From Octopus vulgaris (lineage: Eukaryota): 64,000 nucleotides of DNA. Below are positions 16,697 through 58,171 of the stretch, piece by piece. The DNA lies in the NCBI GenBank assembly GCA_951406725.2, contig OX597837.1:4712001-4776000 (forward strand). Reading direction: 5' to 3'. Each line of letters starts with the position of its first letter. Positions within the stretch are counted from its first letter, which is position 1. The position numbers and the translations under genes were made by a program. The notes under the pieces are model-generated. The model was not told the DNA's origin. It worked only from the letters and a program-made list of their open reading frames with translations, and made no database searches.

Positions 16697-17323
16697 GGGG
16701 GCGAGCTGGCGGTGAGTACGCCGGGCGAACTGCGTAGTTGTATTTCGTCTGCCGTTATGTTCTGAGTTCAAATTCCGCCGAGGTCGACTTTGCCTTTCAT
16801 CTTTTCGGGGTCGATAAATTAAGTATCAGTTACGCACAGGGGTCGATGTATTCGACTAAATCCGTTTGTCTGTCCTTGTTTGTCCCTTCTATGTTTAGCC
16901 CCTTGTGGGCAATAGAGAAATAAGAAACGTTAGCACACCGGGCGAAATGCGTAGCCGTATTTCGTCTGCCGCTACGTTCTGTGTTCAAATTCCGCAGAGG
17001 TCGACTTTGCCTTTCATCCTTCCGGGGTCGATTAAATAAGTACCAGTTACGCACTGGAGTCGATGTAATCGACTTAATCCGTTTGTCTGTCCTTGTTTGT
17101 CCCCCGCTGCGTTTAGCCCCTTGTGGATAGTAAAGAAATAGGTATTTCGTCTGTCGTTACGTTCCGAGATCAAATTCCGCCGCGATCCAATTTGCCTTTC
17201 ATCCTTTCGGGGCATATAAACTAAGTACCAGTTACGCACTGGGGTCGATGTAATCGACTTTATCCGTTTGTCTGTCCTTGTTTGTTCCCTCTGTGTTTAG
17301 CCCCTTTTGGGTAGTAAAGAAAT
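16697..17323 (+). mobile_element. SINE family B, three head-to-tail units
   Basis: Body repeats three times with junctions near 16923 and 17140. Confidence 0.82.
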
Positions 17324-17671
17324 TAATATAGGGAATTAGTGAGGTGACGAGCTTACAGAATTTTTAACGGTGGGTAAAATACTTAGGGCCATTTCGTCCG
17401 TCTTTCATCCTTTCGCAATTGAAGAAAAAAAACTTAGGATCAGATAAACACCGGGGTTGATGTAATCTACTTTGCTCCTTCCCCAAAACAGCTGGACTTC
17501 TTTCAAAATTTGAAATCAATATATGAAATTTGGTACACTGGAATATAACAGGAAGCCATAATATCGAGCGTGGGTGAATTGATTTTAAAATGTACAAGAG
17601 ATCATAATCTATTCTCTGCAATACAGAGTAACGTGTATATAATGTATATACATACAGGTATGATATAAAGC

Positions 17672-17905
17672 AAGGCGGTGAGCTGGCAGAAACGTTAGCA
17701 CGCCGGGTGCAATGTGTAGCCGTATACCGTCTGCCGTTACGTTCTGAGTTCAAATTCCGCCGAGGTCGACTTTGCTTTTCATCCTTTCGGGGTCGATAAA
17801 TTAAGTACCAGTTACGCACTGGGGTGGATATAATCGACTTAATCCATTTGTCTGTCCTTGTTTGTCCCCTCTGTGTTTAGCCCCTTGTAGGTAGTAGAGC
17901 AATAG
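17672..17905 (+). mobile_element. SINE family B (tRNA-like head, Nin/Deu-like domain), monomer
   Basis: B box GAGTTCAAATTCC; central TTTCATCCTTTCGGGGTCGATAAATTAAGTACC resembles the Nin/Deu SINE domain; other copies at about 1825-2230, 32530-32722, 39404-39634, 50900-51262, 57210-57441 and 58220-58609. Confidence 0.82.
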
Positions 17906-18843
17906 ATATAAAGCAAGTATATGGGCACTAGCTATCTACCTTTGGATTCTTTTTCAAACCTTCTTCGCAAGGGGAAAATCATATTTAGTCCCCCTGCATG
18001 GCATCTTGAGCAGGTGTTTTCTACTATGGCCTGCCCAACATTGCTCTTCAACAGTGTTTGGCTCCCCAACATCACTCAACAACCGATGCTGGCGTGTTTA
18101 CGTCCCCGTTTTTCTAGCGGTTGGGCAAAAGAGCCGACAGAATGAGTACTAGGCTTACAAAGAATAAGTCCTGGGGTCGATTTGCTCGACTAACGGTAAA
18201 GGAAGTCAGGCTGCGTCATATTCATAAAGGACGAGCAGGGCAGGTTTTGAAAATGAAGGGCCTCTCTCTTTCGTGTCCTGTATCACAGAAGTCATAGCAC
18301 GAAAGAAGCTGATCGTATTCTTAGAAAGTAAGTGACCAGCTGACTAACGCTCATGGTATTGATTCAAGAAGAAGCTATCTTTAATATCTCTTGCAGCCCG
18401 AGGACATCATGCTATAACAGCTGTTTAACATTTCAAATGTAGGCGTGATATATCACAAAATCAACTGTGGCGAGTGACAAACTGAAAATAATTGGATATT
18501 TCGAAGAGCGACTGCACGAAAGTTTGACCCTGAATTTATGGAGAATCCCAAAAGGAACTGTCATGGAGTCATTACTGTTTGCTGTCCCTATATTAATATG
18601 GCTCAAATATACAGTTCCTTTCACTAGATATCTCTTATACTCTTTTACTCTTTTACTTGTTTCACTCATTTGAGTGCGGCTATGCTGGAGCACTGCCTTT
18701 AGTCGACCAAATCGACCCCAGGACTTATTCTGTCGGTCTCTTTTGCCGAACCGGTAAGTTACGGGGACGTAAACACACCACCATTGGTTGTCAAGCAATG
18801 TTGGGAGGAAATCACAGACACACAAACGTATACACACACATCC

Positions 18844-19872: not shown

Positions 19873-20370
19873 CCGTGTTATGCATGCACATGTGTATAGT
19901 ACAAACATTGACGTAAAATTTAGTATTCTGCTATAAATGAAAATTTGCAGATTGGTTATTTGGTTCCTTAGTTCGAGGTAAGGCTCATAATCTGGACGCC
20001 AAATTATGAACGTATTAACCAACTAAGAATGCGGAGTAAACAAGAAATTGAAGACGGGATAAACAAGGAAAAAACATGGGCGTCAGTAAAAAAAATATAA
20101 GAGCAAAAAATATAATAACATTAGAAACAAAGTTTTTACCGAGAGGAAGAAATACAAATGAAAATTTTATTATTTTCTTACGTGATGCGTGAAATTGCGG
20201 TGAGTTTTGTATAAATTTCTGTGTATGAGTGTAAGTGTATAAGTAGCTACACACACACACAAGTAAACATACGCACACTCATACACACACAGATACTCAC
20301 ATATACACACATACACATATTCAGAAACACACAAACACACACGCACACACGTATATATATATATACACAC

Positions 20371-20426
<56 letters not shown>

Positions 20427-20446
20427 TTATATACATATACACATAT

Positions 20447-20500
<54 letters not shown>

Positions 20501-20747
20501 TCACAATCAAGGAACGGCCATAATAGGCCATTCACCCACTAGAAATAACAGCCAAAAGCTTTAACCGCAAAATAACATTAATTCCGTAAACCAGGAGAAA
20601 ATTGAAAAACTTTTACCCTGTAATTTCTTAGACGATGCACCGTTTCATCTACCGTTTAATGGTAAGACGATTTGAAAATTTTAGGTCAGATATTGCCGAG
20701 GTAGCAAGAGGAATGCCTCGTGAAAAATATCTGTTCTGACTTGGCTA

Positions 20748-20852
20748 TTTCTTACTGATGAGTCTAAGGGCCTATGGTGGATTGGCTTGATTTAATTTAA
20801 TCAGGTTAGTTTACCATTAAACGGTAGATGAAACGGTGCATCGTCTAAGAAA
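20748..20852 (+). ncRNA. Type I hammerhead ribozyme, canonical core (491-nt repeat, copy 1)
   Basis: Stem I TTTCTTA (20748-54)/TAAGAAA (20846-52); CTGATGA (20755-61); stem II GTCTA/TAGAT closing a long loop; GAAA (20830-33); near-palindromic stem III ACGGTGCATCGT; GUC site with predicted cut after 20845. Confidence 0.88.
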
Positions 20853-21238
20853 TTACAGGGTAAAAGTTTTTCAATTTTCTCCTGGTTTACGGAATTAATG
20901 TTATTTTGCGGTTAAAGCTTTTGGCTGTTATTTCTAGTGGGTGAATGGCCTATTATGGCCGTTCCTTGATTGTGATGTTGAACGTAAAAATGGTTTATGA
21001 CTATTTAATTTTTTCCTACTAGGCCGCTGGTGGCAAAAGAATTCTACAAAATTTTTTTTGCCACCCTATATTGATTAATTATGAATTTTCTGGTTAGTTC
21101 CGTAATGGAATCGGTGGCTTATATTTATTTGCTGCCGATAAATTTGGCGCGAGTGCGACGATTTGAAAATTTTAGGTCAGATATTGCCGAGGTAGCAAGA
21201 GGAATGCCTCGTGAAAAATATCTGTTCCGACTTGGCTA

Positions 21239-21343
21239 TTTCTTACTGATGAGTCTAAGGGCCTATGGTGGATTGGCTTGATTTAATTTAATCAGGTTAG
21301 TTTACCATTAAACGGTAGATGAAACGGTGCATCGTCTAAGAAA
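21239..21343 (+). ncRNA. Type I hammerhead ribozyme, canonical core (491-nt repeat, copy 2)
   Basis: Same motif exactly 491 nt downstream of copy 1; predicted cut after 21336. Confidence 0.88.
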
Positions 21344-21565
21344 TTACAGGGTAAAAGTTTTTCAATTTTCTCCTGGTTTACGGAATTAATGTTATTTTGC
21401 GGTTAAAGCTTTTGGCTGTTATTTCTAGTGGGTGAATGGCCTACTATGGCCGTTCCTTGATTGTGATGTTGAACGTAAAAATGGTTTATGACTATTTAAT
21501 TTTTTCCTACTAGGCCGCTGGTGGCAAAAGAATTCTACAAAATTTTTTTTGCCACCCTATATTGA

Positions 21566-21627
<62 letters not shown>

Positions 21628-26204: not shown

Positions 26205-26547
26205 TGTGGTTGCTTCGGAGCTATTTTTAGCACTAGAGTTATCCACATAGTGGATAACTCTCTAATAATTTATGTATAAATTTGTATTTCCTCCGTAGTT
26301 TTTTGTGCTAAGCCACTTGGTGTTAAATTGACGGTATTATTAAATTAATATCGATTTTTCACCCTCATTTATAATTTTATAAATTTAACTACGCGGCAGT
26401 CAATATTTTATTTGATGCGGCATACGTTTCCAATGGAGTCTAGGCATGCTTTTGGCGCGGAATTTGAGACATAACTAAAAATGTAATTGGTTGGACCGCT
26501 CGTGTTTTTGACGCCCGAATCGATCTAATTAATTGCATTTCTGACAA

Positions 26548-26623
26548 ACTCTACCGAAGATTTATAGATGCAAGTGTAAGTAAAACTACATATTGCATTA
26601 GTAATGAAACAATTGTATAGAGT
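26548..26623 (+). ncRNA. Type I hammerhead ribozyme, U4C core variant (493-nt repeat, copy 1)
   Basis: Stem I ACTCTA/TAGAGT; CCGAAGA (26554-60); stem II TTA..ATGCAA/TTGCAT..TAA; GAAA (26606-09); palindromic stem III ACAATTGT; GUA site with predicted cut after 26617. Confidence 0.75.
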
Positions 26624-27040
26624 CAATCTATTTTATTCGTTGTATTTCACTTTCCTTCAGTTAAATGTGTGTTGATTCTAGTTGGAAACGGATCTTCTGT
26701 GGTTGCTTCGGAGCTATTTTTAGCACTAGAGTTATCCACATAGTGGATAACTCTCTAATAATTTATGTATAAATTTGTATTTCCTCCGTAGTTTTTTGTG
26801 CTAAGCCACTTGGTGTTAAATTGACGGTATTATTAAATTAATATCGATTTTTCACCCTCATTTATAATTTTATAAATTTAACTACGCGGCAGTCAATATT
26901 TTATTTGATGCGGCATACGTTTCCAATGGAGTCTAGGCATGCTTTTGGCGCGGAATTTGAGACATAACTAAAAATGTAATTGGTTGGACCGCTCGTGTTT
27001 TTGACGCCCGAATCGATCTAATTAATTGCATTTCTGACAA

Positions 27041-27116
27041 ACTCTACCGAAGATTTATAGATGCAAGTGTAAGTAAAACTACATATTGCATTAGTAATGA
27101 AACAATTGTATAGAGT
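27041..27116 (+). ncRNA. Type I hammerhead ribozyme, U4C core variant (493-nt repeat, copy 2)
   Basis: Same motif 493 nt downstream; predicted cut after 27110. Confidence 0.75.
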
Positions 27117-27705
27117 CAATCTATTTTATTCGTTGTATTTCACTTTCCTTCAGTTAAATGTGTGTTGATTCTAGTTGGAAACGGATCTTCTGTGGTTGCT
27201 TCGGAGCTATTTTTAGCACTAGAGTTATCCACATAGTGGATAACTCTCTAATAATTTATATATATATATATATATATATATGAATATGTATAACATATAT
27301 ATATATGCATATACATATATATGTATGTATATATATATATATGTATATACATATATATATATATACACATATATTCATGTGAGTGAGTGCTTATATATAT
27401 ATAGACATAGGCATAGATATATATATATACATATATATACACATATCTATATACATATAAATATACATACATATATATATATACCAATAAATCTGTATAT
27501 ATTTATATACATACACATATATATGTATGTATACACACATATATTTTGGTAACACCTATGTATTTACTACGTAACCAAGGGATCTACACACTCATAAATA
27601 CATACACACACACCACACGCACCCATACACACGCACCTAGATATACATTTATATATAAGTATTTAAATACATAGATACATATAATACATGTAGATACACC
27701 TATAC

Positions 27706-31937: not shown

Positions 31938-31939
<2 letters not shown>

Positions 31940-32142
31940 CACAATCAAGGAACGGCCATAATAGGCCATTCACCCACTAGAAATAACAGCCAAAAGCTTT
32001 AACCGCAAAATAACATTAATACCGTAAACCAGGAGAAAATTGAAAAACTTTTACCCTGTAATTTCTTAGACGATGCACCGTTTCATCTACCGTTTAATGG
32101 TAAACTAACCTGATTAAATTAAATCAAGCCAATCCACCATAG
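31938..32142 (-). mobile_element. Dispersed partial copy of the 491-nt hammerhead repeat, running into the N gap
   Basis: Reverse complement of about 20772-20976; contains the GAAA/stem III/GUC half of the ribozyme. Confidence 0.85.
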
Positions 32143-32242
32143 NNNNNNNNNNNNNNNNNNNNNNNNNNNNNNNNNNNNNNNNNNNNNNNNNNNNNNNNNN
32201 NNNNNNNNNNNNNNNNNNNNNNNNNNNNNNNNNNNNNNNNNN
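32143..32242. other. Assembly gap (100 N)
   Basis: Run of N. Confidence 1.
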
Positions 32243-40346: not shown

Positions 40347-40767
40347 CTTTTTACTACCCACACGGGGCTAAACACAGAGGGGACAAACAAAGACAGACAA
40401 ACGGATTAAGTTGATTACATCGACCCCAGTGCTTAACTGGTACTTAATTTATCGACCCCGAATGGATGAAAGGCAATGTCGACCTCGGCGGAATTTGACC
40501 TCAGAACGTAGCGGCAGACGAAACACCGTTAAGCATTTCGCCCGACATACTAACATTTCTTTATTGCCCACAAGGGGCTAAACATAGAGGGGACAAACAA
40601 GGATAGACAGACGGATTAAGTCGATTACATGGAACCCAGTGCGTAACTGGTACTTATTTAATCAACCCCGAAAGGATGAAAGGCCAAGTCGACCTCGGCG
40701 GAATTTGAACTCAGAACGTAGCGACAGACGAAATACCGCTAGGAATTTCGCCCGGCGTTTTAACGTT
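40347..40767 (-). mobile_element. SINE family B dimer
   Basis: Two units joined near 40555. Confidence 0.8.
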
Positions 40768-47021: not shown

Positions 47022-47432
47022 GGCGAGCTGGCAGAAACGTTAGCACGCCAGGCGAAATGCATAGCCGTATTTCGTCTGTCGTTAAGTTCCGAGTTCAAAT
47101 TCCGCCGAGGTCGACTTTGCCTTTCATCCTTTCGGGGTCGATAAATTAAGTACCAGTTACGTACTGGGGTCGATGTAATCGACTTAATCCGTGTGTCTGT
47201 CTTTGTTTGTCCCCTCTGTGTTTAGACCCTTGTGGGTAGTAAAGAAATAGGTATTTCACCCGTCGTTACGTTCCTAGTTCAAATTCCGCCGAGGTCGACT
47301 TTGCCTTTCATCATTTCGGGGTCGATAAATTAAGTACCAGTTACGCACAGGGGTCGATGTAATCGACTTAATCTGTGTGTCTGTCCTTGTTTGTCCCCTC
47401 TGTGTTTAGCCCCTTGTGGGTAGTAAAGAAAA
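47022..47432 (+). mobile_element. SINE family B dimer
   Basis: Two units joined near 47250. Confidence 0.8.
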
Positions 47433-56557: not shown

Positions 56558-57441
56558 ACTTTTTTCTATTCCTGAGCGTTATACTAATACATCTGTTTGT
56601 TTTGTACACAACCTGTCTTCGTCTTTTGTTTTTTTTTTTCGTAAACTCTCCTTATATATATATATACGACGGGCTTCTTTCAGTTTCTGTCGACCAAATC
56701 CACTCACAAGGCTTTTGTCGGCTCCAGGCTATAGCAGACAACACTTGCCCAAGGTGCCACGCAGTGAGATTGAACCTAGAATTATATTTGTCGAATTTTT
56801 TTTCTTTCTTTCTTTCTACTATAAGCACAAAGCTTGAAATTTGTGGGAAGGAAGCTAATTGATTACATCGACACTAATATACAACTGGTACTAACTTTAT
56901 CGGCCACAAGAGGATGAAAGGGTGGAATCTGAACGCAGAACGTAAAGCTGAAAGAACTGCCGATTAGCATTTTCATCCGGTACGCTAACGATTCCACCAC
57001 CTCGCAGCCTTCAGGTATGTTATATTCCTTTCTGCTATAGGCATAGGGCCTGAAATTTTAGGAGAAAGGGTTAGTTAATGTCATCACACACACCCCTGGT
57101 GCCCTCTCCCCCCTCCAGTGCTCAACTAATTTTATCCAGCTCCATAGGAAGAAAGGTAAAGTCTACCTTGGCGGGATTTATACACAGAACGCAAAGACAG
57201 ACGAAATACCTATTTCTTTACTACTCACAAGGGGCTAAACACAGAGGGAACAAACAAGGACAAACAAAGGGATTAAGTCGATTATATCGACCCCAGTGCG
57301 TAACTGGTACTTAATTTATCGACCCCGAAAGGATGAAAGGCAAAGTCGGCCTCGGCGGAATTTGTACTCAGAACGGAACGGTGGACAAAATACGGCTACG
57401 CATTTTGCTCGGCGTGCTAACGTTTCTGCCAGCTCGCCGCC

Positions 57442-57487
<46 letters not shown>

Positions 57488-57490
<3 letters not shown>

Positions 57491-58171
57491 GAAATATTAC
57501 AAGTAACTGCAGAATATGTGGAGATGGACAAGAAACAATAAATCATATTATCTCTAGCTGCCCAGTCTTGGCTAAGAAGGAATATATTCACAGACATGAC
57601 AGAGTTGGAACCTACATACATTGGAAGCTATGCCAACATTATGGAATAACAACAGAAAAAAGATGGTATAGGCACACACCAGAAAAGGTCACAGAAAACG
57701 AGAAAGCAACCATACTCTGGGATATGCCGATACACACAGATAGAGAAATTAAGGCCAACAGACAAGATATAGTTGTCAGAGATCATGAAGAAAAAAAATG
57801 CTTTCTAATTGATGTATCAATACCGGCAGATGACAACGTGTCTCTAAAAGAAATGGAGAAACTCTCAAAATACAAAGACCTGGAAATAGAGGTAACTAGA
57901 ATGTGGAACCTGAAAACAGAAACAATTCCTATCATAGTAGGCGCATTAGGCATGATAAAAAAATATTCAGACAAATACATAACAAAAACACCAGGACTTA
58001 CAAACACATATAACATACAGAAAATTGCACTACTAGGCACTGCACACATCCTACGCAGAACACTTTCCATACAATAACCATCAGAGCATCACAACAAATC
58101 ACAGCACATACCCAAGGCACACAGAGCTGCGCTCGGTAGTGAAGTGAAAGCACACTATAAAAATAAAACTA

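Follow-up and report, generated by a model that had tools for sequence, protein, structure and literature searches.

The question raised by this locus is what kind of element a short tandem repeat with ribozyme motifs represents, and how it was inserted and multiplied. Self-comparison of the window (the whole 64,000-nt stretch of DNA analysed) showed a period of 491 nt starting at 20666, as the initial annotation had claimed, and the period-to-period repeat spans 417 nt with two mismatches (20737/21228 and 20953/21444). The array therefore amounts to 1.85 units, so the near-identity of the "two near-identical units" described at first stands, while the second complete unit does not. The direct arm on the plus strand consists of a first period (20666-21156), whose unit position 1 at 20666 is an arbitrary 5′ truncation point, and a partial second period (positions 1-417; 21157-21573). 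The element itself begins at 20499, since an inverted copy of unit positions 146-312 on the minus strand (20499-20665), identical over all 167 nt to 20811-20977, adjoins the tandem. This inverted arm had been missed, as had the (TA)n tracts into which both outer ends pass (20352-20498 on the left and 21574-21627 on the right). A second copy of the family is present at 31938-32142 (minus strand) as a single arm ending in (TA)n and stopped by a 100-N assembly gap (32143-32242). The repeat search across the whole window was dominated by microsatellites. Other repetitive features of the window are tandem copies of 184-217 nt dispersed repeats (16721-17323, 40350-40754 and 47067-47431), which we take to be SINEs, and a 218-aa stop-free stretch with a cysteine-histidine motif (57421-58074) that presumably resembles the C-terminus of a non-LTR retrotransposon protein.

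Scanning both strands of the 64 kb identified exactly two canonical type I hammerheads, with cores at 20755 and 21246, which agrees with the one canonical GUC hammerhead per unit noted initially. The same scan returned the annotated cut positions, after 20845 and after 21336, at which cleavage itself is predicted. The first putative ribozyme (20747-20853, plus strand) comprises a stem I of 8 bp rather than the 7 bp first given (20747-20754 with 20846-20853), a core (20755-20761 and 20830-20833), a stem II of 5 bp (20762-20766 with 20825-20829) and a stem III of 4 bp (20833-20836 with 20841-20844); the second occupies 21238-21344 on the same strand. In each period the core is intact, the triplet is GUC and the 4-bp stem III has a palindromic loop. 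The stem II region is indeed large, but its supposed 58-nt loop resolves into stem II, opened by a G-U pair, then an internal loop, then a 19-bp helix (20774-20792 with 20799-20817). Pair 10.1-11.1 is G-U, not G-C, in the window hammerhead. The Rfam model Hammerhead_1 matches both motifs at 22 bits (E 0.02), compared with a gathering score of 34 bits, and at the gathering threshold Rfam has no match anywhere in the window.

The predicted monomer between the two cuts (20846-21336, plus strand) is a putative 491-nt RNA that carries neither of the two variants private to the window locus. In the circular unit the longest ATG frame is 66 aa and is shifted by a 1-nt deletion in 4 of 18 aligned units; the statement that the monomer has no meaningful ORF thus holds. 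The monomer folds well beyond its shuffles (z = -5.7 as a linear and -4.1 as a circular molecule; 30 shuffles). Its lowest-energy fold is non-catalytic, with stem I extended over the core and the core paired with the cleavage strand; the catalytic fold is less stable by ~3.8 kcal/mol, and the gap is 1.7-3.2 in four other subfamilies. The ribozyme alignment has 97.6% of its cells paired, with compensatory changes in 1 of 37 pairs and covariation not above that of shuffles. Across 18 aligned units, from loci mostly picked by the core pattern, the core is invariant except at N7 and H17; in sequencing run X16, which was not picked by the motif pattern, the differences avoid the invariant core among the matches listed. 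From the motifs we infer that the 491-nt RNA would cleave itself at the hammerhead sites, although the folding favours the non-catalytic conformer.

We next consider the family across the 2.8 Gb assembly. The motif pattern with an intact hammerhead core has 2,432 genome matches and its reversed control has 0, which, together with the monomer z of -5.7, shows that the motif is not a product of chance. The first 100 matches listed come from 38 loci; by extrapolation, the genome would hold roughly 900 of them. The similarity search proposed earlier as a check of copy number revealed a dispersed family, with at least 224 matches at 93-100% identity among the matches listed (best 40 of 817 candidates scored). 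Identity between subfamilies falls to about 90%, and they differ at N7 (where each of the four bases occurs), the cleavage base (either C or A), pair 10.1-11.1 and loop III, and one compensatory pair in stem II varies between them; each subfamily change is fixed in all units of that subfamily's arrays. That the sibling copy in the window stops at an assembly gap could point to an assembly artefact, or the array could be plain satellite DNA. We find either hardly credible: the two units differ at 2 sites, arrays in the same phase are present on many chromosomes, and contigs from 4 of 4 sequencing runs examined, one of them possibly the source sample, bridge the unit's end-to-start junction. Two of these runs (X19 and X20) are labelled as other organisms, and single contigs in them span that junction; the family may extend to relatives, or these runs may be contaminated or mislabelled.

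The unit shares the sequence traits of non-LTR retrozymes. Its 491 nt lie between tens and about 1000 bp, its arrays reach about 18 units, each unit holds one type I hammerhead with a conserved core, no coding or LTR structure was found (judged by reading frames), and the dispersed copies have target duplications longer than 4 bp (14-15 nt at 4 loci). In the accessible text of the two main sources (PMC7229834, Cervera and de la Pena 2020; bioRxiv 10.64898/2026.07.22.740005, Li, Clavereau and Pollet), metazoan non-LTR retrozymes are likewise AT-rich non-coding tandems with one type I hammerhead per unit, a structured monomer, large target duplications and co-occurring Penelope-like elements. 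The preprint, so far as its accessible text goes, gives units of 51-972 bp, within which 491 nt is ordinary; unusual unit length, hinted at by the earlier remark that described animal units are mostly shorter, was rejected as a distinguishing feature. The 491-nt family differs from published retrozymes in its 19-bp extension of stem II. Circles are demonstrated for the retrozymes in the accessible parts of both sources, whereas a 491-nt circle is here a prediction; according to the preprint text available, 1 of 9 retrozyme dimers was cleaved and 8 of 9 were not. Taken together, the sequence evidence identifies the 491-nt element as a real, young, non-coding mobile repeat of a known kind, the non-LTR retrozyme. 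The initial view of a young element is thus upheld: the tandem family is dispersed and non-coding, and each of its units holds one type I hammerhead.

To describe the insertions, we examined 75 loci (the window, the 39 best by similarity and 35 picked by motif in map order) with about 1.2-3.7 kb of surrounding flank. Fifty were simple two-armed copies, 20 were one-armed and 5 were complex. Two-armed copies have their arms head to head with both 3′ ends outward, and the arm 3′ ends cluster at two unit positions, site A (~311; 20976 in the window) and site B (~417; 21082), which bound a 106-nt "tail" (20976-21082, plus strand). One end at each site was found in 45 of the 50 simple two-armed loci, with no A+A and no B+B pair and with one atypical end in the other 5; the motif-picked sample in map order gave 20 of 26, again without same-site pairs. 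The window copy is a typical case, with an A arm of 167 nt (the inverted arm) and a B arm of 908 nt (ending with the second, partial period); the sibling arm at 31938-32142 ends at site A. Even two nominally one-armed loci (L035 and L179) have an opposite arm of 13-16 nt, which is of the other type. The target duplications, 14-15 nt long and overlapping the terminal AT of the element, were readable at 4 loci, in targets that are not pure (TA)n. At the junctions of the 50 loci, the arms overlap by 1-5 nt in 22 cases and by more in 4, meet bluntly in 7 and are separated by a gap or insert in 17. Of the 45 A+B loci, 22 have two arms of more than 491 nt each, and in 43 the B arm is longer than 120 nt and hence reads through site A; the longest arm of all loci examined reaches about 18 units. 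Near-identical young copies have multi-unit arms on both sides, with random 5′ ends and fixed 3′ ends. A further region (L172:2492-3942) holds two separate two-armed insertions about 500 nt apart, both A+B. Sites A and B would be two start sites of reverse transcription, and their strict pairing strongly suggests that one complex primes both target ends, using one site for each.

An inverted 5′ arm, a one-sided tail and an AT-rich target thus occur together with A+B ends in 45 of 50 loci, and the accessible text of PMC8557442 and PMC3846280 presents insertion into (TA)n, an inverted arm and a one-ended tail as standard for Penelope-like elements. The unit might therefore be an ordinary pseudo-LTR (pLTR) of a coding Penelope-like element, present as truncated copies, all the more as Penelope-like coding sequence lies within 7 of the 75 fetched stretches. 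Yet these coding matches fall outside the elements, and the two that were inspected belong to independent insertions, each having 3′ ends of its own. In 75 of 75 loci the unit passes only into itself, the inversion junction or flank; no same-strand motif pair at coding-element spacing occurs among the first 100 motif matches listed; and the window has no Penelope-like protein match. The initial annotation had named as refuting the case in which the unit is found only as the terminus of coding Penelope-like elements, and this case was not encountered in the 75 loci checked. Since no copy in these loci runs into a coding frame, we classify the element as a non-LTR retrozyme rather than a Penelope pLTR, and consider the pLTR reading very unlikely.

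The likeness to endonuclease-positive Penelope-like elements (Neptune, Poseidon and Naiad) is nevertheless close, as these also have a head-to-head inverted 5′ arm, partial tandems, a tail at one end, (TA)n targets and two internal start sites in the accessible text of PMC8557442, PMC3846280 and PMC11167929. In vitro, the Penelope-like protein cuts and extends both strands and is a predicted dimer, uncleaved RNA is its main substrate, and synthesis begins at two internal sites, the same for both strands, whose spacing corresponds to the tail (PMC11167929, accessible text). Unlike these elements, the 491-nt family has no coding frame, its hammerhead has a stable 4-bp stem III instead of the minimal dimer type, and its tail of 106 nt compares with about 26-40 nt in the four coding Penelope-like families of this genome and with the published Penelope tail of 30-40 bp, often at one end only (PMC8557442 and PMC3846280, as far as accessible). 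The two-site footprint is shared, so that the 491-nt retrozyme bears the Penelope footprint without a coding frame, and its regular two-armed shape makes insertion by Penelope-type enzymes highly probable. A comparable two-ended event is L1 twin priming, in which both target ends prime and a head-to-head inversion with microhomology results; there the position of the second site varies and the arms have no overlap, whereas the 491-nt family has two fixed sites and the same sequence is copied into each arm, often repeatedly. In the accessible text of PMC8557442, the Chlamys MRC1 type is likewise non-autonomous and Penelope-like with multicopy head-to-tail insertions, but it resembles its autonomous partners at the 3′ end and belongs to a group without canonical hammerheads, whereas the 491-nt family has no detected partner homology in 50 loci. 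The retrozyme papers, in their accessible text, link retrozymes to Penelope-like elements through co-occurrence and phylogeny, and here the link is made through insertion anatomy; inverted arms and two fixed 3′ ends are not described in the main texts of PMC7229834 and bioRxiv 10.64898/2026.07.22.740005.

Candidate enzymes are encoded in the same genome. A GIY-YIG family search (best 150 of 6,136 candidates scored) and three protein searches (best 150 scored of about 17,000-18,000 candidates each) led to four young Neptune-type families with intact frames of 781, 811, 784 and 775 aa and ends in (TA)n; the clade was assigned by the zinc-finger motif before the GIY-YIG domain, following the accessible text of PMC8557442. 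In all 8 two-armed Neptune-type copies examined, a short end is paired with a long one, the two lying about 26-40 nt apart. The 491-nt unit has no DNA homology to 50 Penelope-like loci, and in the four families sampled (L195-L199 as far as the comparison was listed) neither homology nor a 106-nt tail was found. Two candidate matches were rejected as partner homology: 53 nt in L073 are a stray retrozyme fragment, and 42 nt in L092 (E 0.015) were treated as chance. A relaxed-core hammerhead scan found no monomeric motif in the pLTRs of the Penelope-like elements examined. One young Neptune-type element (L153:1088-6310 and L140-L154) has a 479-aa upstream frame overlapping the 781-aa RT/GIY-YIG frame; the upstream frame belongs to no known family, with one weak Pfam match below cut-off, and the pLTR holds a possible U3-A8 minimal hammerhead, seen by eye. 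The three further families have many copies at 99-100% identity, with intact frames and many of them two-armed. A different canonical type I hammerhead lies near a GIY-YIG fragment (L074, minus strand, scan position 2572; the same region as L159), and possibly represents a third family.

The window holds a second tandem family. At 26205-27264 lies a 493-nt retrozyme-like unit in 2.15 copies with (TA)n flanks, and it has no significant similarity to the 491-nt unit. Its hammerhead-like motif, for which cuts are predicted after 26617 and 27110, has a minimal palindromic stem III and a U4C change in the core. The motif has 250 genome matches, and other subfamilies retain the canonical core. The 493-nt family has its own two end sites about 108 nt apart, and its two-armed loci are A+B in 16 of 21, with no same-site pair and 5 atypical. 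As judged from sequence, the two-end rule is general for the 491-nt family, the 493-nt family and the four Neptune-type families. Among the first 100 matches listed, read by eye, copies with U4C stand in same-strand tandems in 31 of 60 cases versus 2 of 40 for the canonical core. U4C reduces hammerhead activity in vitro (PMC3088659, accessible text). A weaker ribozyme may thus lead to longer arrays; age or loss of the pattern are alternative accounts.

For the insertion process we propose the following steps. The arrays seen in the sequence, whose 491-nt units each contain a type I hammerhead and lack a conserved frame, would be transcribed, cut to monomers and ligated to circles, by analogy with known retrozymes. 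A Penelope-like RT/GIY-YIG protein, probably a dimer, would make cuts staggered by 14-15 nt in (TA)n, and both 3′ ends of the target would prime at the internal RNA sites A (~311) and B (~417), one each. Both cDNAs would circle the same circular template, displacing each other, so that arms can exceed one unit, and the cDNA ends would join head to head, often via 1-5 nt microhomology. We are strongly confident that a Penelope-like RT-endonuclease primes both strands and that the cDNA ends join. Points that count against the scheme are the non-catalytic lowest-energy fold, covariation no higher than in shuffles, the 8 of 9 retrozyme dimers that stayed uncleaved in the preprint, the use of identical start sites by both strands in vitro (PMC11167929, accessible text) and the shorter tails of the Penelope-like families sampled. 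With regard to the template, we lean with modest confidence towards the circular monomer. Circular templates have already been proposed for Penelope-type tandems, and retrozyme circles as templates of Penelope enzymes are a hypothesis of the same sources (PMC4209133 and PMC7229834, accessible text).

A serious rival, although an unlikely one, keeps the same two-site priming and takes as its template a linear multimer, uncut or partly cut, with a ribozyme that is slow or only makes 5′ ends. It is favoured by the non-catalytic lowest-energy fold, by the use of uncleaved RNA as the main substrate in vitro (PMC11167929, accessible text) and by the weakening U4C change in the array-forming subfamily of the 493-nt family. 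Such a template, however, could not yield daughters exceeding their source in length, yet arms of about 18 units occur, and the subfamily changes are fixed in every unit of their arrays. Contigs cannot tell an RNA circle from a DNA tandem. The arms of one locus differ by a median of 0.25% versus 1.4% to other loci; in 32 of 43 loci no arm is closer than the partner arm, in the other 11 a foreign arm is, and in the motif-picked loci the partner arm is strictly closest in 9 of 16. Private SNVs, judged as private among 75 of roughly 900 loci, include 16 fixed within their locus, 8 of which (in 7 loci) are carried by all pieces that cover the position in both arms; such fixation across the two arms requires a bottleneck of one unit, which also speaks against the linear multimer. 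The remaining private SNVs are 104 singletons and 14 common to only some units, for which one pure circle does not account; variants recurring in subsets of units, as in L053, L056 and L057, would fit the linear multimer.

The 14 subset-shared variants in long arrays would also fit a reading in which the initial insertions were short and grew by template jumping between linear monomers or by later unequal exchange or gene conversion. The one-armed array of about 18 units at L053:492-9468, in which whole-monomer haplotypes recur non-adjacently when read by eye, suggests a mixed template pool or local exchange, and local amplification is favoured by the preprint (bioRxiv 10.64898/2026.07.22.740005, accessible text). 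We nevertheless consider growth after insertion or by jumping improbable, as none of the 288 aligned arm crossings of the predicted cut site has an indel at positions 176-185, which argues against end-to-end jumping, and as young, near-identical copies carry more than one unit in each arm, their 5′ ends being random and their 3′ ends fixed. At L031 both arms stop exactly at the first base past the predicted cut, which a linear 5′ end would explain, and 15 of 120 5′ ends lie at positions 180-205 (p 0.002 versus uniform, uncorrected), as if the template were sometimes opened at the predicted cut site. A second peak of 12 ends at 381-405 indicates that 5′ ends accumulate elsewhere as well as at the cut site. 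Overlap alone is no proof of a circle, since a coding element (L171) likewise has long arms that overlap. Taken together, a non-autonomous Penelope-like retroelement of the non-LTR retrozyme kind is, in our moderately confident judgement, the best overall explanation of the 491-nt family.

Merely as another retrozyme, the 491-nt family is ordinary; it is a known kind with variant features, namely a long tail, an extended stem II and an unusually clean mechanistic footprint. The family, its 106-nt tail and a counted two-end pairing were not found in the main texts of the open literature searched, and the origin of tandem and inverted Penelope-like insertions is called undefined in the accessible text of PMC8557442. 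Here hundreds of young copies of a short non-coding RNA bear the complete Penelope footprint, with strictly paired start sites. This footprint gives exact predictions of start positions, stagger and strand pairing, and with a 491-nt substrate and four candidate enzymes in the same genome, the circle model is testable in the existing in vitro assay. As a tentative and still somewhat doubtful reading, we suggest rolling-circle reverse transcription, in which one ribozyme-made circle on a Penelope-like dimer would be copied from two starts 106 nt apart onto opposite target strands, the two active sites pursuing one another around the RNA until the circle is reopened by the ribozyme or the cDNAs anneal. 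If this is true, ribozyme strength would set array length, and a single process would jointly explain why Penelope-like insertions are tandem, inverted and tailed on one side.
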